A stretch of 50,012 bases of DNA from Raillietiella orientalis (lineage: Eukaryota): NCBI GenBank assembly GCA_036172245.1, contig JAYWIR010000116.1:62001-112012 (forward strand). The letters run 5' to 3'. Made by a program: the position numbers and the translations under genes. Shown here one piece after another: positions 10,177 through 49,600 of the stretch; the first letter of the stretch is position 1; each line of letters opens with the position of its first letter. The notes under the pieces are model-generated. The model saw only the letters and a list, made by a program, of their open reading frames with translations. It did no database searches and had not been told where the DNA came from.

Positions 10177-11521
10177 CGACTGTCGGTGCGGAAAGCGAGG
10201 AGGCGGCGCGAATCGAAGACGCGACCTTCGAGCAGGCCGCGGAAGAGCTGGCAGCCATGTAACGGCAGCCTGTCAAGGCGGTAAAGAAGGCCTTCAGACG
10301 ACCGACAACGGCGAAGGTTCCGGAAAATTCCGAGTCCGAAACCGAAGCCGGATGCTCTTCTTCCGCAGCCGTGCCGAAGAGAAAGGCTGGCAAGAAGACC
10401 GGTTGCCTGAGACGGGTCGCCCCTCCGCAGCTGGGGAGCCCATGTCCTTGGGCACGGAGGAGGAGGCAATGTGCGTCGCACCACGCGACCCTTCTCCCTT
10501 CTGCGTCTCGGAAGCCAGCCCGATGGAAATCGCTGTCCACGACAAGCTCCCGTGTGAGCAGCCGACCGTCGTCACGGTCACCAACGAGCCGCCTCCCGCA
10601 AGGGAGGTGGCCGCCTCCACCCCACAATAAACACACCGATGGGTGGGCTCGAATCATTCCGACGCCTGCGCGTCACCTGTTGGAATGTCAACGGATTGCA
10701 CGACGACGGTAAGAGGCGAGACGTAGCCGCCATACTTCGAGACTTCGACCTGGTGCTCCTGCAAGAGATGCACGTTCTCAAAGCAGAAGAAGTCCAGGAA
10801 ATCGAAAGAATCGCAGGAAGGTGGCTACTGTGGAGGAACGGAAACGACCGCTCCTGCGAAGTTGCCTTTTAGCTTAAGCCAGCCGTCGAAAATACACTGC
10901 GCAGCGTGTGGTTCGACCAGGACGGTCGAGTAGGGCAGCTTGTTTTCAAGTGGTCTGACTCGATCGACTTCATAGTCACGAACCTGTACGCTCCGGTGTG
11001 CAACCACAGGGCCGACGAACGCACTGCGTTCCTCGAATCCCTGCGGCGAGACTGGTTGGCTGAAGCAAGCGTACGACGGGCGCACCTCATTGCGGGCGAC
11101 TTCAATCTCCGCGTGCTGGCAGGTGCGCCGTGCACACGAGCACGACTGGTCAACGAGTTGTGTTCAGCCATCAATGCGCGCAACTTGTTGGCGGGTGATG
11201 CCGGGAGAGATCGGAACATCGATCACATGTTTCACGACAACCCCCTGTGAACGCGGGTGGGCACTCGAGGAACGCTGCCGGCACAGCTGTCCGAACATCC
11301 ACGGCTCGTGCTCGAGATACATCCACGCGACAAGGGCCCTTTAATGAAAACGTGGCGCCTGCCGGGGGACTGGTTGCGCCTCGCAGGAGCGGCGGAACAT
11401 CTGCGCGCATTCCTGTGAGGATTCCATCTTGAGACGCTCGCGGACTAGGACGAAATAAAGTGCTTACTCCGCGAGTTTTGCGACCAGTTTCCCCTGGAAC
11501 GTCTTCCGCCGAGCTTCGGCG
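10177..11521 (+). pseudogene. Element I: LINE fragment (ORF1 tail plus endonuclease), interrupted by J
   Basis: DATFEQAAEELAA motif; WNVNGL...LLQEMH (10639..10872); NLYAP, AGDFN, IDH (10906..11250); ends at FPLERLPPSFG. Confidence 0.88.
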
Positions 11522-14500
11522 TAGCCACCCGGGTACGCCCAGGGCGTTTATTAATAAAAAACTCTACAATCGCGGTACCAGGCCCCGCTCACGGCCTTAT
11601 GCACGGGACCTACCGGGACGCCGGGACGCAGCCCGGCCTGGCGCTACCCGGCAGCGAAAGGGGATGAAGAAAACAAAAATAAAAACAAAAACGCAAACAA
11701 ACAAATGAGGTTGGGGGGCAGGGAAGAGATCAGTGATGGCTGAGAGGAGGACCCATCCGTTGAAGGAAGCCCTCGAGGTCCATCCGTATATTTTCCAGTT
11801 GGGGCCATCAAGCAGCTCTCCGCAAGAAGCGTTGGGCATATGGGATGACATCACTCGCGTGTTGACCCACTCCTTCGTTGTTGCTGTCGCTCCATGCCGC
11901 CACGATGCCTCGAACGCAGCACAAGGGTGCAAGGACTGCGGCTGTCTCCAGGGCGTCCTTCACGAAGAGAAGCCGAAGAACGTCTCTAAGGAAACTGCCC
12001 GTAGGGAGACCGAGGATCGTCCCAAACCGTTCCCAAAGGGGATGAAGGGCAGCACAGTCCACAAAAAGGTGGAAGAGCGATTCCCGCTCTCCCCACCTGA
12101 CACACGCAGGATCCACAAATCCTCTTGTCCAGAGAGAGCGGCATGCGTTGCATGGTAAACCCCAATGCAACAACAGCAACCCCGACTCTTTCCACTTAAG
12201 AGGCAGGATCCTGGATTTTTGAAGAAGCAGCGGCCACTTCAGCACATCCATAGGGATGGCCAGCAGCTCGCCCCATCTTCTTAGTCCTCGCGGCTGGACG
12301 TTCGGGGTCGTGGCGTCCGCCAGTTCCCCTGTTGTCCAGCCGCTGATCAACTTCTCGCATCCCTCGATGCAGCAGGAGACTTGCCACCTTGGCGTCCGGC
12401 TGCTGTGAAGTGCCCTACTCAGGAAGGGCAGCGCCGTAGCTAGGCAGGTCGTCTCTGCTTACGTGCATCTTGCTAAACTCTCCAGGAGATTCCGCAGCGT
12501 GCAGCGGGCGTAGAAGCTGCATCAAGACGATTCCACGTTTCCTGGCTCCTGTGGTTAACCGCTGCCCACATTCTAATATTCTCCTCCAGCCAGGCGGAGG
12601 AGTTGGCGGGGCAGCAAACCATCCAGCTGTTCTCCTTGGCCAATGTTGCCATGCGCCCGAGCAGTAGGCCGCATCTTCGCATCTTGCGGCAACGGCTCAG
12701 AAGAAAAGACGCGAGTCCATCGCACCGGGACACACGGCTGGCCAGGAGGCGGGCCGGAGTGCACCAAGCAGTGCTCCACATCTTCGCTGCGATAACGAGG
12801 GTTCGCCACCGCAGCTGCTTCTCCACGCACTCCAGCGTCAGGAGGCCAAGACCGCCGTCCCGACGCGGAGCGTACAAGTCCTTCAGAGAGACTCGGCGCC
12901 TCCCTTTGCCCCAAAGGGCGATACGGAGAAGGTCCTTTGTCCTCTTCTTCGATTCCACGGTGGAGGGGCAAACAAAAAGCAAAAAGCGGAGGATGGGGGC
13001 CGCGAAGGCGTTCCAAACCGCGGCCAGTTCCGGCAAGTGAAACTTGCCTTTCAGGAAAAGCCGATCGCCGTCTCGACTTTTTGGAGGCAACTGGACCACG
13101 CTTCCGCAGGAAAGTAGTCCCCCAACGGCACACCAAGGTACTTGAAGCACCTCGCCATGGGGATCCCCAGACGGACCCAGTCCTGCTGCCCTGCCCACGC
13201 TGCACCTATTGGCACAACCGACGACTTCGCTCTGTTAACCTGCAGTCCGGTCCCAAGGCTGAGCAGATCGAAGAAGACTCCGACTGCCTTTGCCGGGGTG
13301 GACATTGGCAACAAGAGCAGAAGATCGTCGCCGTACGCTGCTACGGCGGGCGTCCCGGGGCACGAGCTCGGCAAGTGGGCCAAAGTCATCCTGTACGCTG
13401 TCAGCTCCAACTCAAAGTAGGTGCTGAAGAGAAGGGGCTGAGGCGATCGCCCTGCCTTATGCCCCGCCGCAGCGGCACGCCACACACCTTCTGTCCACTA
13501 AAAGAGACTGTAATCATCGCATTCCTCCAGCAAGAGCGCAGGTAGGAAATCAGGGAGGGTGGGCAGCCCATGCGACCCAGGACCTCCAAGAGGAATTCCT
13601 AGTCTACACAGTCGAACGCCTTGTGGAGATCGACTGCGAGCGCTAAGGCCCCCTTCCCCGCCCGAGGTTCCCTTCTCAGCCCGGCTGGCGGCCCCAATAT
13701 GGGGTTGCCGACTTTCCTAATCCCTTTCTTTTCTCTTCTCTGCAGGTGCACCCATGTGCTTGCGAAGAAGAGGTTGGCATCCATACTTCGCCCGGGAACA
13801 GCATAACTCAGCTCCCGGATAATAACGGATTCTGCAACCTGCCCCGGAAGCGAAGCCCATAGCGCTGCTATCAAGTTGACGTCCGTATTCACGATCGTGA
13901 TCGGACGCCAGTTCTTTGAAATCCTGAGGTCTCCCCCTTTCGGAAGGAGCCTCACTGTGGCTGACCGAAACGAGGCGGGAACATCGCCTTCGTCTCGGAT
14001 CAGCTTGATCAACTTAAGCAACAGGGGTGCAAGCTCTACCGCGGAGCTCTGAAAGAACTCCGCGGGCAAGCCGTCTTCCCCTGGAGCTTTACGCCTCTTG
14101 AGCCTTTTGATACCAAGGAATTTCGCCCGAGGTAAAAGGCTCGTCGAGGCTTTCCATCTCCTCCTCTTCTATTGCCGGTGCGCCATCCGGAAGCAAGCGC
14201 CGAGAGGCGTTTTGATCCGGGGGCTACCTGTCGTAAAGGGAGGAATGATACCTCCGCACGAGATGCCGTACCGACGCCGGATACGAACACTCCCGGCCCT
14301 GGTCGTCCAGCAAGCTGGCCGACGTGGATTGCCAGGCATGGCGTTCGGCCCCGGCGCGGTACTCGGCCAAGCGACGGAAATTAGGGGTTCTCTCGTAACG
14401 ACGAGCCTGTAAATAGGCCCGATGGTTGCGAGCATCCTCGCCAAATCCGGGGGACAGGCGATTTAGAGGGAACTGCTCACAGAACTCGCGGACCGATTTT

Positions 14501-14535
14501 TTAAAAAAGTCCTAGTCCTGGAGATTCCGGAGCGT
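11522..14535 (-). mobile_element. Element J: 3' ~3 kb of a LINE (ORF2 linker, RT, C-terminus, 3'UTR), interrupted by A/A'; close relative of F
   Basis: Terminus motif at 11522-11552; WRPITIVNTD, DLHKAFD and YGDD in broken frames; strongly similar to 46615-49631. Confidence 0.9.
14519..14535. repeat. 17-bp TSD of element A (TGGAGATTCCGGAGCGT; second copy TGGAGATTCCAAAGCGT at 20070-20086)
   Basis: 15/17 match; the sequence is host J-family ORF2 (compare the uninterrupted site around 49617-49632). Confidence 0.85.
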
Positions 14536-14553
14536 CGAGCGGACGTGTCTTTT
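14536..14553 (+). promoter_or_regulatory. Conserved 5'-terminal motif (GYGGACGTGTTTT-like), probable internal promoter element; present at all seven intact 5' ends
   Basis: Seen at G, A, A', B, C, E and D within ~15 nt of the 5' junction; function inferred. Confidence 0.6.
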
Positions 14554-14617
14554 CGTTGCTCCTGAGTTCCATTTCCGTTGGTGCTTGTGCGTGGTGTGGG
14601 TGGAGGATTAGGCAGAA

Positions 14618-16276
14618 ATGCCTGATACCACTACCGGTGAGGATCCGGGGGCGATGACCTCATTGCCCCCGGAGCAGATGGAGGTGGGGGCTCCCGCATC
14701 AGTGGAGGCTACCGCCAGCACGGATGCGCTCCCGGCCCTACCCAGGGCTTGGAACGCCGTGGCTGCGGCACCTACGCCAGCGGCTATGGCGGAAATGCGC
14801 GCTTACCTGGAGAAGGGGTATAACCCACCCCTTCTATATAAGGTAGGCGGTCTATATTCTTTCAAGAACGCGCGCGCCTTCTCACAGGCGATGCGCGTTC
14901 TCGGCGTACAGAAAGAGGAGCTTCTGGCTATGTCCGTCAGAAGCGGGCGTCAATTTGAGGATGTTATCTGCAAGGAGGCAACTCTTGCGCAGAGACTTCT
15001 GCGAACCCTCGTAATTATGGGCAGCCGGAGGCTTCTCCTAATTACTGAAGACCGGTCGGTGATCATTCACCTGACCGGTATCACGTTCCGGATGACGAAG
15101 GAGGCCGTCCGGAACGAATTGCAAAAATTCGCAACTGTCCACGCGCTGTGGGGAAAGCCTACCCCTATTGTCGATTACGACGGGTTGCTTGGCGGCCTGG
15201 GAGCATTGCGATTGACGGTTCTCGAGGGATGTGAGATTCCTCTCAAACTCACCGTCAACGGTGAATCCGTTGACGTGTGGTACGTGGGGGAACCCAAGTT
15301 TTGCGGCTGCTGCAGCAGCTTTGGTCACCTTAAAATGAGGTGTCCGAGCGTGCAGTGCCAGCAATGCAAACAAGCGGAGCACACCCGTCTGGTGTGCCCC
15401 CAGAACACAGTCCGCGTCGTGTCCGCGAAAAACGCGAGAAAGCGCGCGGCAAAAAAGAGAAAGAAGCTGGCAGCTCGTGCTGCTGCTAAGGAGGTCACCT
15501 CCGCCACCAAGGCGAAGGCCAGCCCCGAGACTTCGGCGAAAAACGCCGAAAAGGTCAAGGGCGAGGGTCAAGAGTCAGGGTGGCAGAAGGTCGACCCCAA
15601 GAAAAACTCTTATAAGAAGGGAAAGAACGTGGCGGAACGGAGCGAAACCGCTCTGCGCCGCGATAAAATTCAAAGCTGCTGCGTCGTCGTAGAGCGGATT
15701 CCCGCCATCGACGAATGCGGCGCTAAAGAACTCGCTGCTGCCCCTGCTCAACCCTACGTTGACAAAGTCAACAAGGAGGGGAGCGAGGCGGCGGCGTCCG
15801 TCATCGAGCCCACGCTCGATGACGTCGCCTTCGAGCGCGCCGCGGAGGAGCTGGCTGCCTCGCTGCAGCCGGTTGCCCCCAAGGCTGGCAAGAAGGCCGA
15901 CAGGCGTCCGGCTTCCCCTCAGGCGTCGGCCACTTCCGACCCCGAGGTGAATGCCGGAAACACAGCATCCATCTCCGCGGCACCCTGCAAAAAGGCAGGA
16001 CGAGAGTCCACAATGCCCCGGAAGATCGTCTCCCACTACGAAGGGGAAGAGATGGCTTCCGGTAGCGAGGGTGTCATGAGCGTGGGAAACTCCCGGGACC
16101 CGTCGCCCGAGAGAATTCCACGCTCGGACACGGAGGGGATGGTGAGGATGGAGGCCGAACAGGTACCCGAGGCGCCTGAAGAGGCCTCCGTCCTCGTTCC
16201 GATGGTCCTCGTACCGATGGACCTTTCCTACACTTGCCCCGCGGCAGGTGCTGCGACGTCACTTTCCCAGCCATAA
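14618..16276 (+). CDS. Element A ORF1, 552 aa, gag-like nucleic-acid-binding protein with two CCHC zinc knuckles
   Basis: Open ATG-to-TAA frame; CGCCSSFGHLKMRC and CQQCKQAEHTRLVC; the preceding region is probably RRM-like (inference). Confidence 0.88.
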   Translation: MPDTTTGEDPGAMTSLPPEQMEVGAPASVEATASTDALPALPRAWNAVAAAPTPAAMAEMRAYLEKGYNPPLLYKVGGLYSFKNARAFSQAMRVLGVQKEELLAMSVRSGRQFEDVICKEATLAQRLLRTLVIMGSRRLLLITEDRSVIIHLTGITFRMTKEAVRNELQKFATVHALWGKPTPIVDYDGLLGGLGALRLTVLEGCEIPLKLTVNGESVDVWYVGEPKFCGCCSSFGHLKMRCPSVQCQQCKQAEHTRLVCPQNTVRVVSAKNARKRAAKKRKKLAARAAAKEVTSATKAKASPETSAKNAEKVKGEGQESGWQKVDPKKNSYKKGKNVAERSETALRRDKIQSCCVVVERIPAIDECGAKELAAAPAQPYVDKVNKEGSEAAASVIEPTLDDVAFERAAEELAASLQPVAPKAGKKADRRPASPQASATSDPEVNAGNTASISAAPCKKAGRESTMPRKIVSHYEGEEMASGSEGVMSVGNSRDPSPERIPRSDTEGMVRMEAEQVPEAPEEASVLVPMVLVPMDLSYTCPAAGAATSLSQP

Positions 16277-19200
16277 TGCCGGGAATCGCCTCTCGCCGTC
16301 GTCTTCTGATCGCCTGTTGGAACGTGAGCGGGCTAAGCGACGACGGCAAGAGGCGTGACGTGGCCGCCACCCTGGCATTCTTCGACCTGGTGCTGCTGCA
16401 GGAGATCCACGTGATCTCCGCAGATCAAGCCCGGGAGATCGAACGGATCACGGGTGGGCGGCTGTTGTGGCGTTGCGGCACCGCGAAATCAAGCGGTGTC
16501 GCCTTCCTGCTTCGGCCAGCCATCGAGGCCGCAATAAAGGACGTTCGGTTCGATGATGCAGGTCGCGTCGGTCAGCTGACTCTCAGCTGGTCCGACTCTA
16601 TCGACCTGGTCGTCACCAACCTATACGCTCCTAGCGGAAATAACGCGTTGAGGGCGAAGGCAGGAAGGGAATTCTACCTTGCCCTGAGACGCGATTGGCT
16701 GACCGATGCAGGAGTACGCAAAGCGCACCTGATGGCTGGTGATTTCAACCTGCGCCTGCTTTCAGGTGCGCCGGATACACTGAACGACCACGTCAACGAG
16801 TTGTGCGCAGAAATGAACACGCGCAACTTGTTGGCCGAGGACACGGCCATGGAAAGGAGCATCGATCACGTGTACCTTGATCAGCACCTATACTCTCGGT
16901 TGAGCAGGCGCGGCAAGGTACCATGCGAGCTGTCGGACCATGGTCGGATCATGTTCGAAGTGCGTCCGCGCGACAAGGGCCCCCCCTCGTCAGCGTGGCG
17001 TCTGCCAGGGGACTGCCTGAAGTTTTCCGACGCGGCGGAGCACCTCCGCGCGTTTATTCGGAGCTTTAAAATGCAGACACTTCATGACTGGGACCGCTTC
17101 AAGCGGTCGGCCCAGGAGTTCTGCGATCAGTTCCCTCTGCATCGCCTACCTGCGGGTTTTGGGGAGGGGCCGCATAACCAATGGTGCTATCTTCAGGCCC
17201 GACGTTACGCGAGAATTCCCGACATGCGCAGGTTAGCAGAGTATCGAGCGGGAGCCGAGAGGCAAGCCTGGCAATCCGGATCGGCCAGCTTGCTGGACGA
17301 CCAGGGCCGGGAGCACTCGGTTCCCGCTCAGAAACGCGGGATAGTGAGAAAATTTTACTCCTCCCTGTACGCCTGGGCGCCTCCAGAGCGAGACGTCTCA
17401 CGACTTCTGCTTCCGGAAGGTGCTCCAGCGATCGGGGAGGAGGATAAAAGAAGCCTCTACGAGCCTTTCAGGATGGACGAGATCCTCTCGGCCATCGGAA
17501 AGCTCAAGAGGCGGAAGGCTCCAGGGGAGGACGGCCTGCCCGCAGAGTTTTACCAAACTTTCGCGGCTGAGCTTACTTCCCTGGTACATCAGCTCACCTT
17601 GCTGATCCGTGAAACAGGTGACGTTCCCACCTCGTTTCGTTCAGTAAAGGTGCGGCTCCTCCCGAAGGGAGGAGACCTAAGGAGCATGAACAATTTGCGT
17701 GCCATCACAATAGTGAATGCGGACGCCAAGTTGATCGCCAAGATGTGGGCAGAGCGTCTGAGACGGGTTGCCAACATCTTCATCAGCCCGGAACAGACTT
17801 ATGCTGTTCCCGGGCGGAGTATGGAGGCGAACCTGTTCCACGCTTGCATATGGTTAGAGCTACAACAAGGAAGGGGCTTATTGAGCAGCCGGAATTCCGG
17901 TGCGTTTGCTGGCGGGAGACAGAACGGTCGGGTGGGGAAGGGAGCCCTTGCGGTCGCTGTCGACTTGCGTAAAGCATTCGACAGCGTCGACCAGAATCTC
18001 CTGCTGAAGCTCCTGGAACGCTTGGGCTTCCCGGATTCTTTGTTGGCCTACCTGCGCTGCAGGTGGCGCGACGCGCTCATTAATGTTCTTTTCAGCGGGC
18101 AAACCGTGCACGGTGTACCGGTGCGACGCAGCATACGGCAGGGAGACAGCCTGAGCCCCCTGCTCTTTAGCGCCTTTTTCGAATTGGTGCTGAGAGCGTA
18201 CAGGGAGACTCTGGCGCACCTGCCGTGCGATTCCCAAGAGACGCCTGCGGTTTCGACGTACGCGGACGATCTTCTGCTGCTGCTGCCTATGTCCAACCCG
18301 GCCTCGGCGGTCGAGGACTTCTTAGACCTGCTGAGTCGTGGAGCAGGACTGACGGTGAACAGGGCGAAGTCGTCCGTAATGCCAGTCGGAGCGGCGTGGG
18401 CAGGGCAGCAGGACTGGGTCCGTTTGGGGATCCCCTTGGTGAGGTACTTCAAGTACCTTGGTGTGCCGTTGGGGGATTACTCCCCTGCGGAAGCGTGGTC
18501 CGGCTGCCTTCAGAAGGCTCAGGCGGCGATCGGCCCGTTCCAGGACGGCAGGTTCTACCTGCAGGAACGGGCCGCGGCGTGGAACGCGTTTGCGGCCCCC
18601 CTCCTTCGCCCCTTGCTTTTTGTTTGCCCCCCTCAGCGGAGTCAAAGAAGAGGACGAAGGACCTCCTGAGGATCGCCCTTCGGGGCAGAGGGAGGCCCCG
18701 AGTCCGTCTTTCGGACTTGTGCGCTCCTCGTCGGGATGGTGGTCTGGGCCTCCAGACGTTGGAGCGGCTGGAGCTACAGCTCCAGTTCCGAGTTGTTGCC
18801 TTTATGGCAGGAAATTGGTGCACTCGTTGGTGCCTCCCTGCACGTCTCCTCGTCGAGCGGGCCACCGGCAATGCGGGACTCTCGTCCTACATTGCACTCC
18901 GAAGCCCCATCTGCCACTGCGGAGTTCAACTTCGGAGGGCGGCCAAGCTCGTGAAGAACAACCCGGCGCGGATTCTCGTACGCCCCGCGAACCGTCCTGC
19001 CTGGTTGCAGGAAACCGTCCGCACGTGGGCGATGATTCAGGAGCAGAGCCTGCAACACGAGCGAATAGCTCTGTTCGGGCCGCATGCCCGCCGGACACTC
19101 CGAGAAATCATCGAGAATCCCCGAAGGAGATCGTGGGCACAAAGAACCTTCCTTGCTGCGGTACTGCCTACCCTACGGGAACATCTGGGCAGCGACTTAG

Positions 19201-19856
19201 CGGCACAATGGGAGGTAACTGTGAAGATCGCCAGCAGGGCAAAGAGGATCGGGAATTAGAGAACGGGTCAGCTCACCAACGCTGCGACCCCGAGGACCAC
19301 CCCAAATGGACTGTTGCGCTGAAGAGAGCTACTGGATGTTCCAGATGAACATCTCGAGTGGCCTCCGGTGCTCATGGACTCGCGCACCCTCCCCATGAAG
19401 TGGCAACAGTCGGCACTGATGGTGTTGCATTGGGGGCTTCCTTACAACGCTCGCCGACATTACTGGACGCGGGGTGGTGTCAACCCTAATTGTGTCAGGT
19501 GCGGGGAGAGGGAATACCTCCCCCACCTGTTAGTGGATTGTGTTGCCTGCCGTTCCTTGTGGGAACGCTTTGCAGCAGCCCTGGGGATCCCCGGAGGCAA
19601 CCCCAGAGACGCTTTGCGCCCCTTCTTCGTCCGTGACGCCCTGCCTCCAGCGGCCTTGCTTGCAGCCCTGTGCTGCCTACGCGGGATCGTCGTGGCATGG
19701 AGCAAAGCGACGAAAGGATCCAGCGACAGGGATGCCAACGTTTAAGCCGCCCGTTTCCTCAGGATGGCGACGCGATGGCCCCATCTGGAACCACACAAGC
19801 AGAAGCAGCTTGCCGGCATCCTCCAGAGGATGACGGACCCTCCCAGAATACTGTGA
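16276..19856 (+). pseudogene. Element A ORF2 (APE-RT-Cys/His, ~1190 codons), frameshift near 18630 and later stops
   Basis: Open from the TAATG overlap through WNVSGL, QE, GDFN, IDH, SDH, KAPGEDG, DLRKAFD, RQGDSLSP, YADD, KYLG; CVRCGEREYLPHLLVDC in 19368..19745. Confidence 0.93.
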
Positions 19857-19944
19857 TCCCTTCCCCCTGCCTCCCTGATTTTTGTTTATTTTTTGTTTTC
19901 TTTTTGTTTCGTTCCCCCTTCCCTCTGCTGCCGAGGTCGACCGT

Positions 19945-19962
19945 GCCGGTCTGCGCACCGGT
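19945..19962 (+). other. Conserved 3'UTR stem-loop with CTGCGY hexaloop
   Basis: Equivalent hairpins at 11620-11637, 22117-22132, 28787-28804, 35033-35050, 38368-38390, 46713-46730; variant loop CTATGC at 926-943 and 1274-1291. Confidence 0.72.
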
Positions 19963-20039
19963 AGCCCGGCAGGCTATATCTTTCCAGGGCGTGGCTGGAC
20001 TACTGGTCCAGTCACAGATTGTATAACTTTATTCGTGAG

Positions 20040-20069
20040 AATAAACGTCCCGGCGCCCCCGGGTTTCAA
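20040..20069 (+). terminator. Conserved 3'-terminal module AATAAA + CCCGG-loop-CCGGG hairpin + 6 nt; present at all ten 3' ends
   Basis: 803-832, 1151-1180, 10147-10176, 11522-11552, 20040-20069, 21990-22019, 28688-28718, 34938-34967, 38274-38303, 46615-46645. Confidence 0.8.
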
Positions 20070-20086
20070 TGGAGATTCCAAAGCGT

Positions 20087-21989: not shown

Positions 21990-22325
21990 TTCTCACCCGG
22001 TCACGCCGGGGCGTTTATTCCATATAACATAACCAAAAAAAAAGCAATTATACAAAATAAACCAGTTGGGAACCAAACTCCCAACCGACGACTGAACAAG
22101 AATGAAGAGAATATTGCTGGCACGCAGGCCAGAGTAACAGTTTTGTGAACGGTGTGGGGGGGCGGGACACACAAAGAAACCAAAATAAAATAAAAACAAT
22201 GAATAAGGAGGACGGGATAAGGGTCTTTGGGATCGCTCTGGAAGACACGGGGATAAAAGCATGGGCACCGGAAAATTTACCGAGCGAACGGGGACGGGGT
22301 ATGGGTGGGCGAGAGGTCGCAGGGG

Positions 22326-34250: not shown

Positions 34251-34353
34251 CGGACACCAACGATGTGAAAAAGCACACACTGAACCAAAAAAAAAACCGC
34301 TTTCCGCTGCTCGTTCGCATAGCGCCGGAAAAACACGTCCGCTCTCGAGGAGA

Positions 34354-38273: not shown

Positions 38274-38586
38274 TTATCACCCGGTCACGCCGGAACGTTT
38301 ATTAATAATAATAAACTGGTCAGGGACAATGTCCCCAACCAAGAGAACGACAGAGAACCTAGAAAAATTACCGGCACGCAGGCCTGGTAAACAAACCGCT
38401 CACAGCGTAAGGGGAATGAGGGGAAACAAACAGAAATCAAAACCTGGAGGGAAGGGTAACGGGTTTTTGGTGAGGCTCCGTACTCACGGGGATTTATACG
38501 ATGAGCACCTAAAATGTTCCGGAGCCTATGTGGACGCGGGTGTAAAAAGAAAATACAAATTTAGTTTATGGAGGGTAGGGCAATGA

Positions 38587-41500
38587 TCACCGGGTTGGCC
38601 GCTGATGAGGGTGTGTAAACCGGCGGTGTATTGCGGCGAGATTCCTCTTTGTCTCCTCTGTCAAATGAGGCCATCTAGCGGATGCTACCATGTAGAAGGA
38701 TGCTTTGCTGATTACCTCTTGGTGCTGTCCGTTGATTACCAACGCCTGGCGGACGGAAACTATCGCGCGTATGCAACCGATGGTTGCAATCCTTGCGCTT
38801 AGTGAAAGCCCGCTCGGCGTGAAGAATCGTGGCAGCAAGTCTCTTGCGGTGTCCACGGGATGCAATAGTGCTGTTGCCAGCCTACGCCACAGTCCTTGCA
38901 GGACACCGCAGTCCAGAAGTAGGTGCGGAATCGACTCCGTCGATCCGCACCGAACACAGTTCGCAGACGCAAGTCCCCCGGAGTCACGATGCCAACGCTC
39001 GTTGCACTGAAAACCCCAGTGAACGAAAAGCAGCACGGCTTGTTTCCAAGCAAGGGGGAGCAGCGAACTGTCAATACACTGTGGAGGGACTACAAGTTCT
39101 TCTGCCCACCGGAGCAGTCCCTTTGCAGTAACACGAGGAGTGGCGGCGTCCGCCAACTCACTTGTCTTCCAGGTGCCAAGGAGTTTGGTTCTTCCCGCTA
39201 TCGTGCAGGAAACCTCCCACCTCGCCGGTTGGTAACTGTCGTTTCTTGCCCTGAGAGCAGACAGCGCTGCGGCAAGAGGCGTGGCAGCCAGGGTAGAAAA
39301 CTTCACCTCGTCCTGCAGTACTTCTTCCAAGAATCGTGGAAAAAATTGGCGCAGGGGGCGAAGATCTTCAGGGCGTATTCCTTGGAACGCCGCCCAGGAT
39401 TCAACAGACTCCTGCTGCCAAGCTTCAAAGTTCATTGGGCGGCAGGAGATCCAAGAGTGTGCTTCCAGAAGTGCGGTCAACTGCCGCAATGGAAAACCGA
39501 AACCCCGCTTCCTGTATTCAGTGCTCGGCAAAAGCGAGAGAAATCCTCCGCTGCCGGCGCATCTCCGCAGAAGAATGCGAGCTGGCACACACAGGGGGGA
39601 TGTCCATAGCTGGGCACACAGTGCCAGCAGTCGGAACTGAACCTGCAGTCCGATTCGCACTATTGTCAGGATACCCAAACCAGCATCCCGACGCGGAGCT
39701 GACAAATCTTTAAGGCGGATCCTGGATCTCGCCGGACCCCAGAGAGCGTTCCTGAGCAGGCGCTTAGCCCGCTGTTTTGCCGCATAGGGGGGGTCCAAAA
39801 CAAAAAACAGGGGACGGAGGAGGGGGGCCACAAAGGTGTACCAAATAGTCGCCCGTTCCTGCAAGGTAATCTTGCCGTTAAAGAACGGGCTGATGGCCAA
39901 CTCTGCTTTCTGAAGACAGTTCGCCCACGCTTCGGCTGCGCCGAAAGCGCCCAACGGAACGCCAAGGTACTTAAAGTACCCGCCGGTGGGGATCCCCAGG
40001 CGGATCCAGTCGGACTGCCCCTCCCACGACGTACCCACAGCAACGACCACGCTCTTCTCTCTGTTCACGCTCACGCCCGCTCCCCGACGAATCAGGTCGA
40101 AGAAATCCTCCACACTGGACGCCGGGGTGGACATGGGGAGCAGAAGAAGCAGGTCATCAGCGTAGGCGGCCACGGCAGGCGTTCCCGGGCAGGAGCTTGG
40201 CAAGTGAGACAGCGTCAGCCTGTATGCACTTAGCACCAACTCAAAGAAGATGCTAAAGAGCAACGGGCTTAAGCTGTCGCCCTGTCGGATGCCCCTACGA
40301 ACGGGAATACCATACACGCTGCAGCCGCTAAAAGTGATGCAGGTTAGCGCGTGGCGCCAGCACGCGCGCAAATACAGCAGGAGTTGCGCCGGGAACCCAA
40401 GGCGTTCCATAAGCTCCAAAAGCAGCTTCTGGTTTACGCAGTCGAACGCCTTGTGGAGATCGACCGCGACCGCCAAGGCACCTGGCGTTCCCTCCTGCCG
40501 TCGGCGCCTGTTCTTTTTGCCTGCGGCAGTGACTTTCGCAGCAGCCTGACTTCGCTGCGCCACAACTTCCTGCAGCTGCATCCATGTACGCGCGAAAAGG
40601 ATGTTCGCCTCCATGGATCGCCCCGGAACCGCGTAGGTTTGTTCCGGGCTCACCACAGATTCCGCGATTCTTCCTAACCGCGCGATTTACAGCTTGGAAA
40701 ACAACTTGACGTCCGAGTTCACCAAGGTGATCGGACGCCAGCTGCTAAGTTGGCGCAAGTCTCTGTCTTTCGGCAGGAGACGCACCTTCGCTGAGCGGAA
40801 GGAATCAGGGACATTCCCGGATTCACTCATCAGCGTCGCGAGGTTCAGCATCAAGGGAATGAGCTCCACTGCAAAGCACTGATAAAACTCTGCAGGGAGC
40901 CCATCCTCGCCTGGCGCCTTTCGTCTCTTCAGCCCAGCGATGGCGGACGAAAATTCATCCGCCGTGAAGGGCTCGTCGAGACGTTCGCGTTCCTCCTTGC
41001 CGACAACACGAGCATCCTGAGACAGGAGTATCTCAGAAAGAATATCCTCCGTCGGGGATTCCGCGTAGAGCGAGGAGTAGTAGCGTCTCACAATGCTGCG
41101 TACTTCGGCTGGGGCCGAACATTCCCGGCCCCTGTCGTCCAACAGGCATGCTGCTCCGGACTGCCAGACCTGGCGCTCGGCCCTCGCCTTGTACTCTGCG
41201 AGACGCCCGACATCGGCGCGTCTTGAAAACGTGCGGGCCTGCAGAAAGTCTCTACTGTTGGCCACACCCTCTCCGAAACCGCGTGGAAGCCGGTGCAAGG
41301 GGAATTGGCAGCAGAACTCGCGGACAGATCTTTTGAGATCGTCCCAGTCCGCAAGTTCTTAAATGGCAAAGCCTCGGAGGTATCCACGTAGAACCTCCGC
41401 AGCCTCCGGTTGGCAAAGCGAATCCGCCTGCATCCTCCAGTTTTGCAACGGAGGCCCCCTGCCTGGCGGAAAGATCTCAAACTCCAACCTGTGGTGGTCA

Positions 41501-42159
41501 GAAAGCCTAGTCAACAATCTTCCTCTCCTACCCACACGCGAATGCAGGTTTTCATCGAGGAAAACGTGATCGAGCGATCTTTCCATTCCAGGTTCGCTGA
41601 CCATCAAGTTGGCGGCGTGCACGGACGCGCACATCTCGATGGGTAGCGCGCGTTCCCTCGGCCGGCTCCAATCGTCGGAGAGCAGGCGGACGTTGAGGTC
41701 CCCAGCGACGAGGTGCGCCACTTGGAAACCGGAGTTGTTGAGCCAGTGGCTCTGCACCTCACCAAAGAAAGCTACTCTTTCTTCGAGGTAGCGAGAGCCA
41801 CTCGGCGCGTAGACGTTCGTAACGACGAGATCGATGGACTCGGACCACTTGATGACAAGCTGGCCTATCCCTCCGTCGTCATCGAAACGAACACTACGCA
41901 CCGCTTCCGCCATTTTTCCTCTTACGAGGAACGCGACGCCGCACGTGTGTGCGCCGCCGCACCGCCAATGTAGCGTTCCGCCTGCGCGCTCCTCGATTTC
42001 GGCTGCGTGCTCGTCGGAGATTACGTTAATCTCCTGCAGCAGCACGAGGTCGAAGGGGCGCAGGGCGTTGGCTACTAATCGCCTCTTCTCGTCGTTCTGT
42101 AGTCCGTTCACGTTCCAACACGTTACGGACAGACGACGAGAAGACGCGATTCCCCGCAT
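38587..42159 (-). pseudogene. Element E ORF2 (1190 codons, single frame, two premature TAA stops)
   Basis: ORFs 41359..42159, 40687..41298 and 38587..40656 are in one frame; all EN and RT motifs present plus CVRCGSTESIPHLLLDC. Confidence 0.93.
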
Positions 42160-44081
42160 TACTGCTGGGAAGGTGGCGGCTTTTTACTCGCTTTATCCGG
42201 CGAGCAGAAGGCGAGCAGCACGACTGGCTGGAGGGGACGGTCGCCACCGTCTTTTGTCGTGCTGCATGCATGTACTGCCTCCACGTCAGGCTTAACCCTG
42301 TCGGGTTTCGTGAAGATTTCGCGTGACTTCGCGGCAAGCGTTGCCTGGCTGCCTACTATTAATCGGTGCGCACACGCTTTCGAACGAGTTGTCCTCGTCT
42401 CGGTGATCGGAACGGCATCCATTTCGGAGTCCGACCGGCGCATGTTCGATCGAGTTTCGGCCTTCCGCGAAGTAGTGACAGGTTCTGCTGGATTGACAGC
42501 TGTCCTGTTGTCTTTTTCCGTCTCCAGAGCATCGCTTTTGGTGACGGCTGCTTTCCCGGCGCGCGCGTTTTCAGCGTGCTCACGCGCAGTTGCGCGAGGG
42601 ACCTTTGCTGAAGTCTTCTTTACTTCATTACGGTTCCTCACTTCGTGTGGCGCCGTAAATGGAGATTGTGTTCCATTGCCATCTTTGAAGCCGTCCGCGT
42701 CTTTGGACGGGAGCACTTTCGATGGCTCCGACACGCTCGTCATGGATGCTGCCTTCGGAAGGGCTTTTAATCCCTTCGTTGGCATGGCATCCGCGCCAGT
42801 CGAGAGCTTGCTCTCCGACTGCGACGGCGTGAGAGTTTTCTCCGCTTTCCCGGTGTTGGGTCGCGACGCGGATTTTTTTTTGCCGACTTTCGAAGTCGAC
42901 ACGGCACAACCCTTCTTACCCGATTTGGGCTTCTCAGCCACTGCAGGAAGTGAAGGAATGGATCTGACGGTACTGGAAGTCTCCTTACCGTTGTTGTCCA
43001 TTGTCGTCCCCGCCGGTTGCTCGAACTCCGAAAGAGCCGGGCGTGCTTGGGAAGGACACCTATTGCGCCTAGGGGGACTTAGCATTGCCCCGGATTCCCC
43101 GCACCCTTTCTTTTGCGGCTCCCCTGCCGCGAGAAAGGACGCGCAGGGCTTCGCGTGCGAGGTTTCCTGCTGCTTTGGGGCGACATTCCGCCTCGCGTTT
43201 TTTCGGAATTTCTGCCGTGGGGTCTCCAGGTTTTTCGCAGATTTTTTCTTTTTATCCGCGCTTTGTTTTCTAAGATGGAGCTCCGCGGCTGCCTTTTTTC
43301 GCAAAAGATCCGGGCAATTTTTCAATTGGTGCGCGGATAGTTTGCAATAACGGCATTTTCCAGAGGGGCATTTATCCAAACAATGCCCCTCCTTCCCGCA
43401 TTGCTCGCACGTTTTTACTTTGCCCACGAACCACAGGTGAACGACCGTGTCTTTCACCTGTAGTTGGGTGGGCAGCAGACGGCGGTCCGGCATTGTAAGC
43501 CGGACTCCAGCGACTCCGCTGTGTATGGACGGGAAGTCCTTGAGGTTGCTACGCACCCTCCACAGCGCATGGACCGTGGCGAATTTCGCCAACGCGTTCC
43601 GAATATCAGTATCGGAGACTTCCGACTCCATGTCGAAAATCTCCGCCACAAATGAGTCGTCCATGGCGGCCGGGAAGACCTTCTGGCCACGGATCGACAA
43701 CGGGGTGCGCAGCAAGCGTTGCACAAGTGCAGCGTCTTTGCAACGCACCTTGAAATAGCCCATGTCTTTTACGGGCATAATGGCGAGAAGGTCCTCCTCC
43801 CGCACGCCAACACGGGTCAGTTCATCGTTGAACTGATTCCCGTCGCGCGCAGAAAGAAACCCACTCACCTTATATCGGAGAGCAGGTCTATAGCCTTCGG
43901 CTACGTATGCCCGCAACTCCGACTCGTCGAGTGGCTTCCCTTTGACGGCTGCTGTGGCAGCAACGTCAGCAAAACTCCTCTCTTTTGGCGAGAATCACGA
44001 AGTGGAGGCGACCGTCGGTTCCGCGATTGCAGATCCATATGCTGTTCCTCCAACTTGAGTAGCTTCAAGTTGGGTCGACAT
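42159..44081 (-). pseudogene. Element E ORF1 (two CCHC knuckles); 585-aa open frame, likely ATG at 44081 separated by an early stop
   Basis: CEQCGKEGHCLDKC and CRYCKLSAHQLKNC in 42159..43916; the in-frame ATG at 44081 is followed by TGA near 43995. Confidence 0.82.
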
Positions 44082-44159
44082 CGTCGTCAAAATGTACGAC
44101 GCCAAGATGAAGCGGATGAAAGCACGGAGACGAGAGCGAAGAAAAACACGTCCGCACTC

Positions 44160-46596
44160 GATTGAAATCTCCCGCTATCAGGTGAGCCTTTCGCACATTG
44201 GTATTCGCCAGCCCGGTCCGTTTCAGGGTTTTTAGCAGCCTGGTGCGGTCGCGGTACCCCTGTTTGCCGCTGGGGCCATAAACGTTTGTGACGATTAGGT
44301 CGATCGAGTCGGACCATCTGAGAATCAGCTGACCGATCCGACCGTCGTCATCCAACGGCACGCCCTTCACGGCAGCGTCGATGGCCGGCTTTACGAACAA
44401 CGCGACTCCGCGGGTGTTGCGGAGCCCGCATCGCCAATACAACCGACACCCCGCGATTGCCTCGATCTCCTGGGCGTCTGCCGCGGTGATCACGTGGATC
44501 TCCTGCAGCAGCGCCAGGTCGAGCTCACGCAGAGTGTCGGCCGTATCTCGCCTGTTGCCGTCGTCGCGCAGCCCGTTGACGTTCCAACAGGCCGCGCGAA
44601 TCCGACGGCGACTGGCGAGCCCAGGTGTTAGTCCTGGGAAAACGACGATGCGGCGTCCGCCACCTGCTGGGGCGAAACGCTAGGTGGAGGGGGAGGGGGG
44701 ACAGGTACTGAAGACACCTGTTCCTCCTCCTCCATCGGTGTTGGCGCGTCGGCCCGATCACCCGCAGGTGGAGTCGCGCCTACCTGTTCGCCTTCCTCCA
44801 TGGGTTCGGGCTGCTCAGGTTTTGCGACTGCAGAAGGACTTCACTTCCCTGCTCACCCTCTTCCATGAGGGTGGCCGCCTCGACGGCTTCCAGGCGTGGG
44901 TATCCCCCCTTCGGGATTCCCACGCTGCCGTTTCCTTCCGGTTTCTCCTCCTCGCTGGTGGAGGAGAGGCGCCTCCTGGGTTCCTAAGACTTGCGTCCCG
45001 ACTTCCTGGGGGTGCCTCCGAGGAGGAGGATCCGCTTCCGGCCCCCAGCTCGCACTCACCTGCGGGGGCCTTCTTCGTCGGAGCCGAACTGCGTACGCCC
45101 TTGCGCGGCGGGTTTTCGCGCTCGGCGTGCGTTGCTACGTGCTCCTTTGCCGCATTCTCGAAGGCCTCGCCTTCCACAGCGGGGATTGTTGCCGGGGGCT
45201 GTTCCGCGACCTTATCGAGCGCGGAGTCATCGCTGACGGCGAACGTTGCCGCGGGCTCCTACGCGACTTTATCGAGCGCGGCGTCCTGGCTGTCGGCGCG
45301 CGAGTCTCGCGTCTCACCCTCTACACGTAGATTGGGCTCGTCCACGCGAGTATTCATCGCGTCCGCATCAGCTGTTCCGCGAACATTGCCGCGGGCGGAC
45401 TCGGCAGGAACGGCTTAGCGTTCCACTGCCACCGAGCATTCCCGGAGTTGTTTTTTTTTTTGAAAGAGGCGTGGCTTTTTTCTTGTTGCCGGCAGTTTTC
45501 TTCTCCGACTTTTCTTCTGGCATTAATTTCTTTTTTTTTTCTTTTCTGGCCTGAACCAGCTGCCAACCCTTCTCAATTTCCGCGTTCACAAGAGCTCTTT
45601 CCTCCGACGACTGTACGGGAGGAAGGGAGGCTGGCAGTTGGGAACGGCCATTTTCGCGAGCTGGTCTTTCCACCAGCTTTCCACGTTTTCCCTGCGCCTT
45701 TTTGGCGGCAAGGGGCACCGGGGTGGGGCGCTTGGGGCACACCCGCCGAACGTGACCCTTTTCGCCGCATAGGTGGCACACAATGTTCGGGCACCTTTTT
45801 CGTAGATGCCCTACTGCATTGCAGTAGCCACAAAATTGGCGTTTCCTTACGTACCAGAGGTCCACCTCTTCTTGGCAGACCTCCAGCTTGTGGGAAAGCG
45901 CACCACTCTCTTTTAATGTGATATGCGCCGCAGCTTGACCTCCGAAAAGGCTATTGTAGCCTTGGAAAATCGTAGACTTCGGCCACAACGCGTGCACTTC
46001 TGCGTGCTTTTGTAGCTGTTCTCGAACCGCTGACCTAGTCATGCGACTGGAGATCCCAGTGAGATGGACCACCACCGAGCGGTCCATCGTTATCGGCAAG
46101 ATCTTCCGACCATCAACAATCAGCGGGTCGGTGATCAGGTGTCGGGCCAAGGTGATATCCTTCCATACCACCTCGACCCGCTGCCCGCCGCTGAGGACGA
46201 AGAGGCCGTCGCAATCTTTTTGAAAATATTGGCCTTCTGCAGCGCCTTCGTAAAGGCGCGTGCAGTTTGCCCATCGAAAAGGTTGCCTACCTTGTAGCCT
46301 AGCGAGGGTTTATACCCCGCTTTCTTGTAGGCTTCCATCTCGGCCATGGCTTCCACGCTAGGCGCGGCCACCATGGCGCTCCATGAACTCGGAGTCGCCG
46401 GGGACGATTCCAAGACGGATGCCCCTGATCCAGTAGGCTGTGGGGCGAACAAGCCCCCATCACGCCTACTTCCATCGCGGTGTCCTCTGGCAACGCTGCC
46501 ATCGGACACCGACGATGTGCACGCACAAATCACTCAACAAAAAAAAACACTCGCTTCGCCACGCAGGCGGAGCGCAGGAAAAGAACGTCCGCTCTC
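44160..46596 (-). mobile_element. Element D 5' part (5'UTR, disrupted ORF1 44628-46502, first half of endonuclease)
   Basis: 5' motif GAGCGGACGTTCTTTT at 46579-46594; CGYCNAVGHLRKRC and CHLCGEKGHVRRVC in 45368..46171; NVYGP...AGDFN in 44065..44493. Confidence 0.9.
45131..45301. repeat. Three degenerate 57-bp tandem units inside D ORF1
   Basis: Units start GTTGC at 45131, 45188 and 45245; they encode variants of the DAAFxxAAEELAAT helix. Confidence 0.7.
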
Positions 46597-46614
46597 CACA
46601 GAAGGAATTCGGCG

Positions 46615-49600
46615 TTGCCACCCGGGTACGCCCGGGGCGTTTATTTATAAAAAACTCTACAATTGCGGTACCAGGCCCCGCTCACGGCCTTATGCACGGG
46701 ACCTACCGGGAGGCCGGGACGCAGCCCGGCGTGGCACTCCCCGGCAGCGAAAGGGGATGGGGAAAAACAAAAATAAAAACAAAAAGGCAAACAAACAAGT
46801 GAGGTTGGGGGGCAGGCATGGGATCACTGTTCGCAGAGAGGAGGGCCCATCCGTTGAAGGAAGCCCTTGAGGTCCATCCGTATATTCCCCAGTTGGGGCC
46901 ATCCAGCAGCTCTCCGCAAGAAGCGTTGGGCATATGGGATTACATCCCTCGCGTGTTGACCCACTCCTTCCTTATTTGTGTCGCTCCATGCCGCCACGAT
47001 GCCTCGGACGCAGCACAAGGCTGCAAGGGCTGCGGCTAGCTGCAGGGCGTCCTTCACGAAGAAGGGCCGAAGTACGTTTCTAAAGGAACTGCCCGTAGGG
47101 AGATGGAGGATCGTCTTAACCGTTCCCAAAGGGGACGAAGGGAAGCACAGTCCACAATAAGGTGGGAGAGCGATTCCCGCTCTTCGCACCTGACACACCC
47201 AGGATCCACAACTCCTCTTGTCCAGTGAGAGCGGCGTGCGTTGCAGGGTAAACGCCAATGCAACAACAGCAACGCCGACTCTTTCCACTTAAGGGGCAGG
47301 ATCCTGGATTCCTGAAGAAGCGGGGGCCACTTCAGCACATCCATAGGGATGGCCAGCAGCTCGCCCCATCTTCTTAGTCCTCGCGGCTGGACGCTCGGGG
47401 TCGTCACGTCGGCCAGTTCTCCTGTTGTCCAGACGCTGATCAACTTCTCGCGTCCCTCGATGCAGCAGGAGACTTGCCACCTTGGCGTCCGGCTGCTGTG
47501 AAGTGCCCTCCTTAGGAAGGGCAGCGCCGTAGCTAGGCAGGCGTCTCTGCCCACGTGCATCTTGCTGGAATCTCCAGGAGATTCCGCAGCGTGCAGCGGG
47601 CGTGAAGGCTGCATCGGAGACGATTCCACGTCTCGTGGCTTCTCTGGTTAACTAATGCCCACGTTTCAATATTCTCCTCCAGCCAGTCGGGGTAGCTGGC
47701 GGGGCAGCAAACCATCCAGCTGTACTCCTTGGCCAATGTTGCCATCCGCCCGAGCAGTAGGCCGCATCTTCGCATCTTCCGGACACGGCTGAGGAGAAAA
47801 GACGCCAGTCCATCGCACCGGGACATACGGCTGGCCAGGAGGCGGGCTGGAGTGCACCATGGGGTGCACCACATGTTCGCTGCGATGGCGACGGTTCGCC
47901 ACCGCAGCTGCTTCTCCACGCGCTCCAGCGTCAGGAGGCCAAGACCGCCTTCCCGACGCGGAGCGCACAAGTCCTTCAGTGGGACTCGGGGCCTCCCCTT
48001 GCCCCAAAGGGCGATACGGAGGAGGTCCTTCGTCCTCTTCTTAGATTCCACGGTGGGAAGGCAAACAAAAAGCAAGGGGCGGAGGACGGGGGCCGCGAAG
48101 GCGTTCCAAACCGCAGCCCGTTCCCGCAAGTGAAACTTGCCTTCCAGGAACGGGCAGATCGCCGTCTCGACTTTTTGGAGGCAGCTCGACCACGCTTCCT
48201 CAGGGGACTAGTCCCCCAACGGCACACCAAAGTACTTGAAGCACCTCGCCGTGGGCATCCTCAGACGGACCCAGTCCTGCTGCCCTGCCCACGCCGCACC
48301 TATTGGCACAACCGACGACTACGCCCTGTTAACCTGCAGTCCGGTCCCGCGGTTGAGCAGATCGAAGAAGTCTCCTACCGCCTTTGCCGGGGTGGACATT
48401 GGCAACAAAAGCAGAAGATCGTCGACGTACGCTGCTACGGCGGGCGTGCCGGGGCACGAGCTCGGCAATGGGGCCAAAGTCACCCTGTACGCTCCTAGCA
48501 CCAACTCAAAGTAGGTGCTGAAGAGCAGGGGGCTGAGGCTCTCTCCCTGCTTTATGCTCCGTCGCACCGGCACCTTATACACCTTTTGACCGCTGAAAGA
48601 GACGGTAATTATTGCATTCCACCAGCAAGAGCGCAGGTTGGAAATCATGGAGGGTGGAAAGCCCATGCGACCCAGGAGCTCCAAGAGAAGTTCCTGCTCT
48701 ACACAGTCGAACGCCTTGTGGAGATCGACTGCGAGCGCAAGGGCCCCCTACCCCGCCCGGGGTTCCCTTCCCAGCCAGCCTGGCGGCCCCAATGTGGAGT
48801 TGCCGACTTTCCTAATCCCTTTCTTTTCTCTTCTCTGCAGGTGCACCTTTGTGCTTGCGAACAAGAGGTTGGCATCCATACTTCGCCCGGGAACAGCCTA
48901 AGTCTGCTCCGGGCTAAATACGGATTCTGCCACCTGCCCCAGACGTGAAGCCCATAGCCCTGCGATCAACTTGGCGTCCCTATTCACGATCGTGATCGGA
49001 CGCCAGTTATTTAAATCCCTGAGGTCTCCCCCTTTCGGAAGGAGCCTCACTCTGGCTGACCGAAACGAGGCGGGAACATCGCCTTCGTCTCAGATCAGCC
49101 TTGTCAGCTGAAGCAGCAGGGGTGCCAGCTCTTCCGCGAAGCTCTGAAAGAACTCCGCGGGCAAGCCGTCTCCCCCTGGAGCTTTACGCCTCTTGAGCCT
49201 TTTGATACCGGCGAGAATTTCGCCGGTGGCAAAAAGCTCGTCGAGGCTTTCGATCTCCTCCGCCCCTATTGCCGGGGCGCCATCCGGAAGCAAGCGTCGA
49301 GAGGCGTCTCGATCCGGGGGCTCCCTGGCGTAAAGGGAGGAATAGAAACTGCGCACGAGATGCCGTACCGACGCCGCGGACGAACACTCCCGGCCCTGGT
49401 CGTCCAGCAAGCTGGCCGACCCGGATTGCCAAGCTTGGCGTTCGGCCCCGGCGCGGTACTCGGCCAGGCGACGGACATTAGGGGTTCTTTCGTACCTACG
49501 AGCCTGTAAATAGGCCCGATGGTTGTGAGCACCCTTGTCGAATCCGGGGGGCAGGCGATCCAGTGGGAACTTCTCACAGAACTCGCGGACCGATTCCTTA

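Follow-up and report, generated by a model that had tools for sequence, protein, structure and literature searches.

A LINE subfamily with a partly supported site preference at a conserved ORF2 codon in a Zepp-like island of Raillietiella orientalis

The closest known parallels to the locus reported here are clusters and site-specific families of long interspersed nuclear elements (LINEs). Zepp-type clusters, as portrayed in excerpts of PMC8226300 and PMC3446292, grow as new copies insert into older ones and contain tandem arrays, mostly of 3' ends; in green algae they reach up to 42 kb at 61% GC (excerpt of PMC3446292). Target-specific LINEs with an apurinic-like endonuclease (APE type) are established, with transposons among their targets (excerpt of PMC4640811). 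In trypanosomes, ingi and RIME, a LINE and a short interspersed nuclear element, occupy one fixed place in the RHS coding family, and pseudogenes are split in halves (excerpt of PMC7563717). Here we describe a stretch of 50,012 nucleotides from Raillietiella orientalis (GenBank assembly GCA_036172245.1, contig JAYWIR010000116.1, positions 62,001 to 112,012, forward strand), hereafter the window, which is a nest of related LINEs with a GC content of approximately 59%. Two copies of a LINE subfamily whose 3'-terminal hairpin carries a CGTA loop, J and C, interrupt the second open reading frame (ORF2) of two other LINEs at the same nucleotide. This re-use of one position is real, independent, and not a matter of chance, and across the three or four cases examined it points to an insertion-site preference.

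The features involved in these two insertions are listed below in window coordinates. EN, RT, and UTR denote endonuclease, reverse transcriptase, and untranslated region, respectively.

10177-11521, + strand: J's host LINE.
10603..11521, + strand: N-terminal part of the host's ORF2 (EN domain and linker, to residue 328), ending in TTCGGCG, located by tblastn and codon table.
11522..14535, - strand: J, a CGTA-loop copy comprising the 3' UTR and the C-terminal two thirds of ORF2.
11526..11551, - strand: J's 3'-terminal hairpin (CGTA loop); its stem includes a U-G wobble.
14536..20069, + strand: H, a full-length LINE of the same family as C's host.
27945..28687, + strand: second piece of C's host, H2, ending in the target TTTGGGG (28681-28687).
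28688..34358, - strand: C, a full-length CGTA-loop LINE of 5671 bp.
28692..28717, - strand: C's 3'-terminal hairpin (CGTA loop); its stem includes a G-U wobble.
34359..34364, + strand: right copy of C's target-site duplication, TTGGGG.
34365..34935, + strand: third piece of H2 (from ...EGPRN), 91.6% identical to H, ending in GTTGAT at copy D.

On the + strand, J's host reads ...CCGAGCTTCGGCG, with the 7-mer TTCGGCG at 11515-11521, and J follows directly from 11522 (TAGCCACCCGGGTACGCC). The host frame up to this junction is FPLERLPPSFG. Similarly, H2 reads ...GCGGGATTTGGGG, with TTTGGGG at 28681-28687, and C begins at 28688 (TTGTCACCCAGGTACGCC); the H2 frame up to the junction is FLLHRLRAGFG. 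Both junctions and both frames agree with an earlier note on this DNA, made by a model from the letters, which placed J after 11521 and C after 28687 (host LHRLRAGFG). The same note had H2 resume at 34364, which is one base early and falls inside C's 6-bp target-site duplication (TTGGGG; left copy 28682-28687, right copy 34359-34364). H2 actually resumes behind the second TTGGGG, at 34365 (AGGGGCC).

When H ORF2 was used as the tblastn query, both hosts stopped at residue 328 (10624-11520 and 27922-28686). In the codon alignment, the breaks are TTC GGC G in J's host and TTT GGG G in C's host. Both hosts lie on the + strand, while J and C lie on the - strand and are thus antisense to them. All ten ORF2 copies in the window share the Phe-Gly pair at the break, and in most LINE families here it belongs to a motif, ...FPLHRLPxGFGEG..., located between EN and RT. 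The two hosts belong to different families, since their amino-acid identities to H are approximately 57% for J's host and 86% for C's host. The earlier assertion that the homologous nucleotide was hit in two host families, by two antisense inserts, is therefore borne out.

H carries an uninterrupted version of C's target: its empty site at 17164/17165 reads GGGTTTTGGGG/AGGGGCC (here and below, a slash within a sequence marks the insertion point), and H and H2 are 92-95% identical. The empty site, together with the 6-bp duplication, indicates that C entered H2 after H and H2 had split. As for J and C, their host flanks are 64.0% identical (383/598) versus 76.0% for the inserts themselves (2277/2997; Fisher P = 3.7e-9). 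Because the hosts are more diverged than the inserts, the two insertions were independent. A single ancestral insertion might instead have been duplicated together with its host, such that J with its host and C with its host go back to one event, and a single blastn alignment does span the junction (10924-14531 with 28084-31707, 74.6%). However, such a composite would have diverged evenly, the LINE with the empty site is nearly identical to H2, and the hosts are of different families. Composite ancestry was rejected based on the empty site and the uneven divergence, and we consider it exceedingly improbable. For a 5.7-kb LINE, the probability that any one pair of insertions made independently would agree by chance in base and orientation is approximately 9e-5; taken over all 28 pairs among eight junctions, it is approximately 2.5e-3.

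The 7-mers TTTGGGG at C and TTCGGCG at J are derived from the target and are not the element's own end. At C, this follows from the presence of the 7-mer in the empty site and from a duplication whose length matches those of two other copies, K (6 bp) and K2 (8 bp); at J, it follows from a host frame that crosses TTC GGC G in register with the Phe-Gly of all ten ORF2 copies. The earlier note had itself raised the possibility that the element's own 3' end includes TTCGGCG, in which case J and C would merely lie near one host position and the junction of the third CGTA-loop copy, F, would be a plain end-to-end join. Indeed, blastn alignments of J with F and of C with F continue through the 7-mer (11515 with 46608; 28677 with 46604), and the F junction is without a recognizable host. 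Against this, H has TTTTGGGG exactly at its empty site, and the upstream GCGGG(A) of H2 leads into TTTTGGGG. Moreover, the frame of J's host passes through TTC GGC G in agreement with the Phe-Gly of the nine other ORF2 copies, an element tail would mimic TTY GGN G by chance about once in 2048 (hand calculation), and the right-hand TTGGGG of C is accounted for by a duplication of normal length. For C, this explanation is already largely refuted; for the subfamily as a whole, we judge it improbable.

The CGTA-loop hairpin pattern, with up to 3 mismatches allowed, occurs at exactly three places in the window (11526, 28692, and 46619) and had no match in 100 shuffles. As previously proposed, J, C, and F share this hairpin, and within the window only these three do, as the other seven 3' ends carry other loops. 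The ten 3' ends are at 802, 1150, 10176, 11522, 20069, 21990, 28688, 34936, 38274, and 46615. In all ten aligned ends, AATAAA stands approximately 25 nt before the last base and is accompanied by a 5-6 bp GC stem, a family-specific loop, and a final ...AA; a poly(A) run was found in none of the ten. The K row of this alignment lacks the last bases and the flank, and the flank and loop of K were accordingly read directly from the sequence. At the opposite end, the 5' ends of the window's LINEs share (C)GAG(A/T)GCGGACGTGT.

Copies with other loops follow other sequences, such that the flank goes with the subfamily. Thus, D follows GTTGAT/, K follows GGGAGAT/, K2 follows TTGAAAT/, and copies A and B each follow GCGTCCGCCG/; on the primer strand, M follows ...GACAGTCG/ and H follows ...AATCTCCA/. 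The 3' ends with GTGA-type loops, namely K, D, and K2 (21984-21990, 34930-34938, and 38266-38274), follow ...AT, and the host continues with C: GGGAGAT/CGAAC, GTTGAT/CGCC, and TTGAAAT/CTCCC, with two extra bases (AG) at D. This shared ...AT/C context may reflect a second, different nick preference.

TTYGGSG has 39 sites on the two strands of the window, a frequency of 3.9e-4 per position, and precedes the 3' end in three of three CGTA-loop copies. Where the host is readable, the insertion is at the same codon and antisense (2/2; the material comprises the three window copies plus one short contig, described below). The Phe-Gly codons of ORF2 account for 6 of the 39 sites: those of J's host and H2 are occupied, and those of H, J, C, and D are empty. 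The corresponding sites in fragment 3, K, K2, and F do not fit the motif. Since four matching sites are empty, use of the site is far from saturating. The family's own ORF2 retains the motif intact, as C, D, and J carry TTTGGGG or TTTGGCG; the target is therefore not confined to relatives. Likewise, because the window is all LINE, landing in a LINE is no evidence for aiming at LINEs. These data support a preference for a short motif; recognition of a wider LINE motif is not shown by them.

The third CGTA-loop copy adjoins the following features.

34936..38273, - strand: D, the 3' portion of a copy that resembles C but differs in its hairpin loop; it sits at the GTTGAT site of H2 and continues as E.
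38274..44160, - strand: K2, a K-family LINE inside D/E.
44161..46607, - strand: E, the 5' part of D's copy (ORF2 start, ORF1, and 5' UTR).
46608..46614, + strand: 7-nt spacer TTCGGCG between the D/E 5' end and the F 3' end.
46615..50012, - strand: F, a CGTA-loop copy with its hairpin at 46619-46644, which leaves the window within ORF2.

At the F junction, ...GAAGGAATTCGGCG, containing TTCGGCG at 46608-46614, is followed by TTGCCACCCGGGTACGCC from 46615. The sequence preceding F, ...GGAATTCGGCG, ends at 46614. What lies to the left of 46608 is not host ORF2 but the 5' end of D/E: the 5' end of E, ...CACAGAAGGAA, is homologous to that of C. D and E are one copy, because K2 lies between them with an 8-bp duplication (ATTGAAAT; 38266-38273 and 44161-44168) and the C sequence is continuous across the homologous point. 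On the sense strand, the 5' end of C reads CCCCAA-CTCCCTCTCCT-CGAGAGCGGACG, and that of D/E, aligned to it, reads CGCCGAA-TTCCTTCTGTG-GAGAGCGGACG. As the two ends align, the 11-nt leader belongs to the element and the extra bases are the 7 nt of TTCGGCG only. F and D/E are therefore joined head to tail through a spacer, TTCGGCG, that is as long as a target duplication and has the same seven letters as the target of J. The statement that F abuts a sequence similar to the other two targets therefore holds (TTCGGCG at 46608-46614). A third host ORF2 at this place was rejected, as the match is limited to 7 nt and the preceding bases are the 5' leader of D/E.

The 3' end of D/E lies at another H2 site, GTTGAT/, where H reads GTTGAT/CGCC. 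TTCGGCG is therefore not the target-site duplication of D/E. The two flanks of D/E, GTTGAT (34936) and TTCGGCG (46607-46615), do not pair as a duplication, and H2 sequence beyond residue ~520 is nowhere in the window. The mismatched flanks and the missing remainder of H2 suggest a deletion, a recombinant copy, or the insertion of a dimer. Three origins of the F junction are conceivable: an array may have formed at a TTCGGCG site, after which two C-like copies recombined; a dimer transcript may have retrotransposed; or the reverse transcriptase, at the 5' end of the D/E RNA, may have jumped to an F RNA that carried a tail.

Throughout the window, in several families, sites are re-used and copies are arrayed head to tail. 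With no preference involved, J and C might agree by chance or because a crowded nest has a structural hot spot, and the F spacer might be an accidental by-product of unequal crossing-over or template jumping as the array formed. The all-LINE make-up of the window, the arrays and re-used junctions in several families, and an informative sample of two hosts fit such an account. It is countered by the low chance probabilities given above for one pair and for all 28, by the identity of the F 7-mer to that of J (4^-7, approximately 6e-5, hand calculation), and by the fit of all three flanks to a motif with a frequency of 3.9e-4. We regard the absence of any preference as unlikely.

We infer that the endonuclease is the source of the preference. 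Specifically, we assign a probability of roughly 0.6 to the reading that the EN of the CGTA-loop subfamily nicks after TTYGGSG on the sense strand of the host LINE. The primer strand would be TT(Y)GGSG, nicked straight after the last G, as in GGGTTTTGGGG/AGGGGCC, the empty site of H, and in ...CTTCGGCG/. The 3'-OH at the nick would prime reverse transcription at the hairpin-terminated end of the RNA, with no poly(A) being copied, and a second nick 6-7 nt back would produce the short duplication. The duplicated copy would restore a usable site, such that copies could stack head to tail, as in D/E-TTCGGCG-F. This mechanism would have the same codon of different host families hit repeatedly because the conserved Phe-Gly-(Glu) codons spell out the 7-mer, and insertions would always be antisense because the nicked strand is the sense strand of the host.

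The preference could alternatively reside in the RNA. A loosely specific EN would act together with an RNA tail, read into the 3' flank of the parent copy (CGCCGAA or CCCCAAA in the sense orientation), that anneals at the new nick, so that the parental target is inherited. In keeping with this, J and F, which are 90.3% identical, share TTCGGCG and the more distant C has TTTGGGG. The F junction would require no host, as a jump of the RT from the 5' end of one RNA to the tailed 3' end of another gives D/E-TTCGGCG-F. In addition, pairing of 3'-terminal RNA bases with the target has been proposed for SART1Bm and R1Bm (excerpt of PMC7265360). With AATAAA 25 nt before every 3' end, a transcript ending a few bases past the element is conceivable. 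On the other hand, a nick exactly after the 7-mer is still required, so some EN preference remains; the 7-mer never stands twice in succession in any copy, as tail plus target would give; and tail and lineage co-vary in a single contrast only (n = 3). We consider annealing a possible source of the preference, albeit a rather improbable one.

Several observations weigh against a nick preference of the EN. The F 7-mer lies outside any host ORF2, and this spacer is not the duplication of D/E. The arrays with repeated pieces of target at A/B and H/H2 imply that a general array process could explain F without a motif preference. Four matching Phe-Gly sites are empty, among them the one in H, whose near-identical counterpart H2 is occupied. 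The predicted hairpins of five 3' ends were no more stable than shuffles (z from -0.47 to -1.36). The sample consists of three CGTA-loop copies and one short contig, and the bases after the nick are readable for C alone. Finally, two of three insertions are on Phe-Gly codons, which beyond the 7-mer itself corresponds to P = 0.064; the enrichment at these codons that the earlier note had suggested testing is thus marginal within the window. Of that note's conclusion, a subfamily preference for roughly TTYGGSG/ stands as the best reading. Its further claim, a retrotransposon that specifically parasitizes and inactivates its relatives, is not shown, given the all-LINE window, the motif in the subfamily's own ORF2, and the marginal enrichment. 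The element is best described, with partial support, as a site-preferential LINE in a LINE island, and a dedicated destroyer of relatives is not shown.

A broader reading would see the island as the work of a guild of LINE subfamilies. Each would have a heritable nick preference for a conserved motif in the ORF2 of the others and in its own: TTYGGSG/ for the CGTA-loop subfamily and ..AT/C for the GTGA-type. Homing would sustain a self-renewing, LINE-only haven, possibly a centromere. We offer this as a tentative proposal. If true, conservation of the targets would be secured by the targets' own need of a working ORF2.

The search for further junctions was extended beyond the window. One contig of sequencing run X1 contains a C-like 5' end, AAAGAGGGAGTTGGG plus G, and then an F-like 3' end; another 3' end is thus preceded by TTGGGG at another locus. 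This contig has a depth of 2 and 21 letters on its short side, and is 1 of 298 contigs mapped to the window. Of the latter, 6 mapped at >=99% identity, 38 at 95-99%, 68 at 90-95%, and 186 at <90%; the run contains 16% of the window's words. No loose end at the F junction (46614/5) was among those listed (6/200). Scans for the 3' hairpin returned none in metagenome contigs, either for the CGTA form or for a form covering both loop types, and none in genome contigs. A protein-guided search for loci with C ORF2 gave 71 pattern matches in genome contigs and 6 in viral contigs, none of which was confirmed. A word-index search with the ORF at the F junction (residues 39-100), restricted to candidates of 55-175 aa, yielded no candidate, and phmmer with the ORF at the H2/C junction (P0016) gave no hits at E <= 0.001 against 1.84 billion representatives. 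Homologues of C ORF2 numbered 15 and included one close relative (P0001, 67% identity, on a 2870-base contig), which is uninformative on junctions.

Based on self-comparison and translated searches, the mapped LINE copies account for every base of the window. LINE protein homology or repetition within the window covers 46,024 of the 50,012 bases, and the remaining bases are UTR or inter-ORF stretches in mapped copies. By their Pfam matches, the elements classify as APE-type non-LTR (long terminal repeat) retrotransposons, with a predicted apurinic-like EN followed by an RT in ORF2 (PF03372 and PF00078 at E = 1.2e-11 and 1.5e-20 in H, and at 2.6e-8 and 1.5e-21 in C). ORF1 carries a zinc knuckle (Pfam), and no domain was found by Pfam at the C-terminus of ORF2. 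Other traits of APE-type LINEs are also present, namely short target-site duplications (6 bp at C, 6 bp at K, and 8 bp at K2) and 5' truncation (A is a 338-bp 3' fragment). Some copies are young, as judged from their reading frames: ORF1 of C (32743-34197) is open, with 484 aa and a zinc knuckle; ORF2 of C (29444-32548, - strand; EN and RT, 1035 codons) has a single in-frame stop (31775-31777); and H has an open 554-aa ORF1 plus an ORF2 piece of 829 aa. The distant hits are a mixture of L1-like and other LINEs, and neither an atlas search nor Pfam on the ORF2 C-terminus pointed to a clade.

The remaining mapped features are as follows.

~6-801, - strand: fragment 1.
802-1139, - strand: A, a 338-bp 3' fragment, 5'-truncated.
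From 1150, - strand: B.
~2406-3472, + strand: fragment 2.
~3473-8065, - strand: fragment 3.
8066-10176, + strand: M, 5'-truncated, beginning within RT.
20070..20086, + strand: 17-nt J-derived piece between the H 3' end and the H2 5' end (compare 14519-14535).
20087..21989, + strand: first piece of H2 (5' UTR, ORF1, and ORF2 start), 94.6% identical to H.
21990..27944, - strand: K, a full-length LINE of another family with a GTGA-type loop, in H2 after GGGAGAT.

K and C are nested within H2, and K2 within D/E. The K duplication, GGAGAT (6 bp), is at 21984-21989 and 27945-27950. The 5' part of J was removed at 14535/14536, the boundary with the H/H2 array. The window contains four head-to-tail junctions: A/B, M/J's host, H/H2, and F/D-E. 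H and H2 stand head to tail, and 17 nt of J (TGGAGATTCCGGAGCGT, 14519-14535) are repeated between them at 20070-20086 with 2 differences; either the same nick was used twice, with a duplication of 17 bp, or the duplications underwent unequal exchange. At 792-1487, two tandem 348-bp units are 94.8% identical, each being the 3' end of an ATAT-loop LINE preceded by GCGTCCGCCG. The B sequence at the truncation point of A (TGTCGCCG) resembles the spacer. The A/B tandem is attributable to either microhomology joining or slippage. M starts directly at the 5' end of fragment 3 (8065/8066). Its other end abuts J's host where the latter is 5'-truncated (10176/10177), a head-to-tail junction at which no repeat of target sequence was observed.

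At present, the case is a well-documented coincidence of two insertions with two supporting junctions, and a site-preferential LINE inside a Zepp-like island is partly supported: the observation is confirmed, and its interpretation in part. If confirmed genome-wide, the finding would explain how LINE-only islands of the Zepp type form through short preferences of the EN or of annealing. Such preferences would be aimed at codons that other LINEs can hardly change, and the coding motif of another LINE would join ribosomal DNA, small nuclear RNA genes, telomeric repeats, and DNA transposons among the known site-specific targets. It would also provide a compact, testable endonuclease-target pair.

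The likeness to Zepp and ZeppL is one of cluster architecture: a LINE-only, GC-rich island with nested copies and head-to-tail arrays of 3' ends, represented in the window by approximately 59% GC, four head-to-tail junctions, and the tandem 5'-truncated 338-bp 3' fragment. Zepp ends in poly(A), whereas the 3' ends in the window are short hairpins without it. Further unlike Zepp, several diverged families interleave here, and insertions recur at one defined nucleotide within a conserved ORF2 codon. Like the R1 and Tx1 clades, as described in an excerpt of PMC4640811, the subfamily combines an APE-type EN with an RT and enters a multicopy target in a fixed orientation with a short duplication; in some cases the targets are transposons. 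In contrast to these clades, the site here is a 7-mer, short and degenerate, that lies in coding sequence, both that of other LINEs and the element's own, and specificity is not strict. Pairing of the nicked target with a few bases located at the RNA 3' end or past it, as proposed for SART1Bm and R1Bm (excerpt of PMC7265360), would be a possible source of the present preference; here, such pairing is a rival mechanism only. The insertions also resemble those of ingi and RIME in falling at a fixed codon of a multicopy protein-coding family. The RHS targets of the latter, however, are cellular genes and not retrotransposons, and the elements are unrelated as far as tested.

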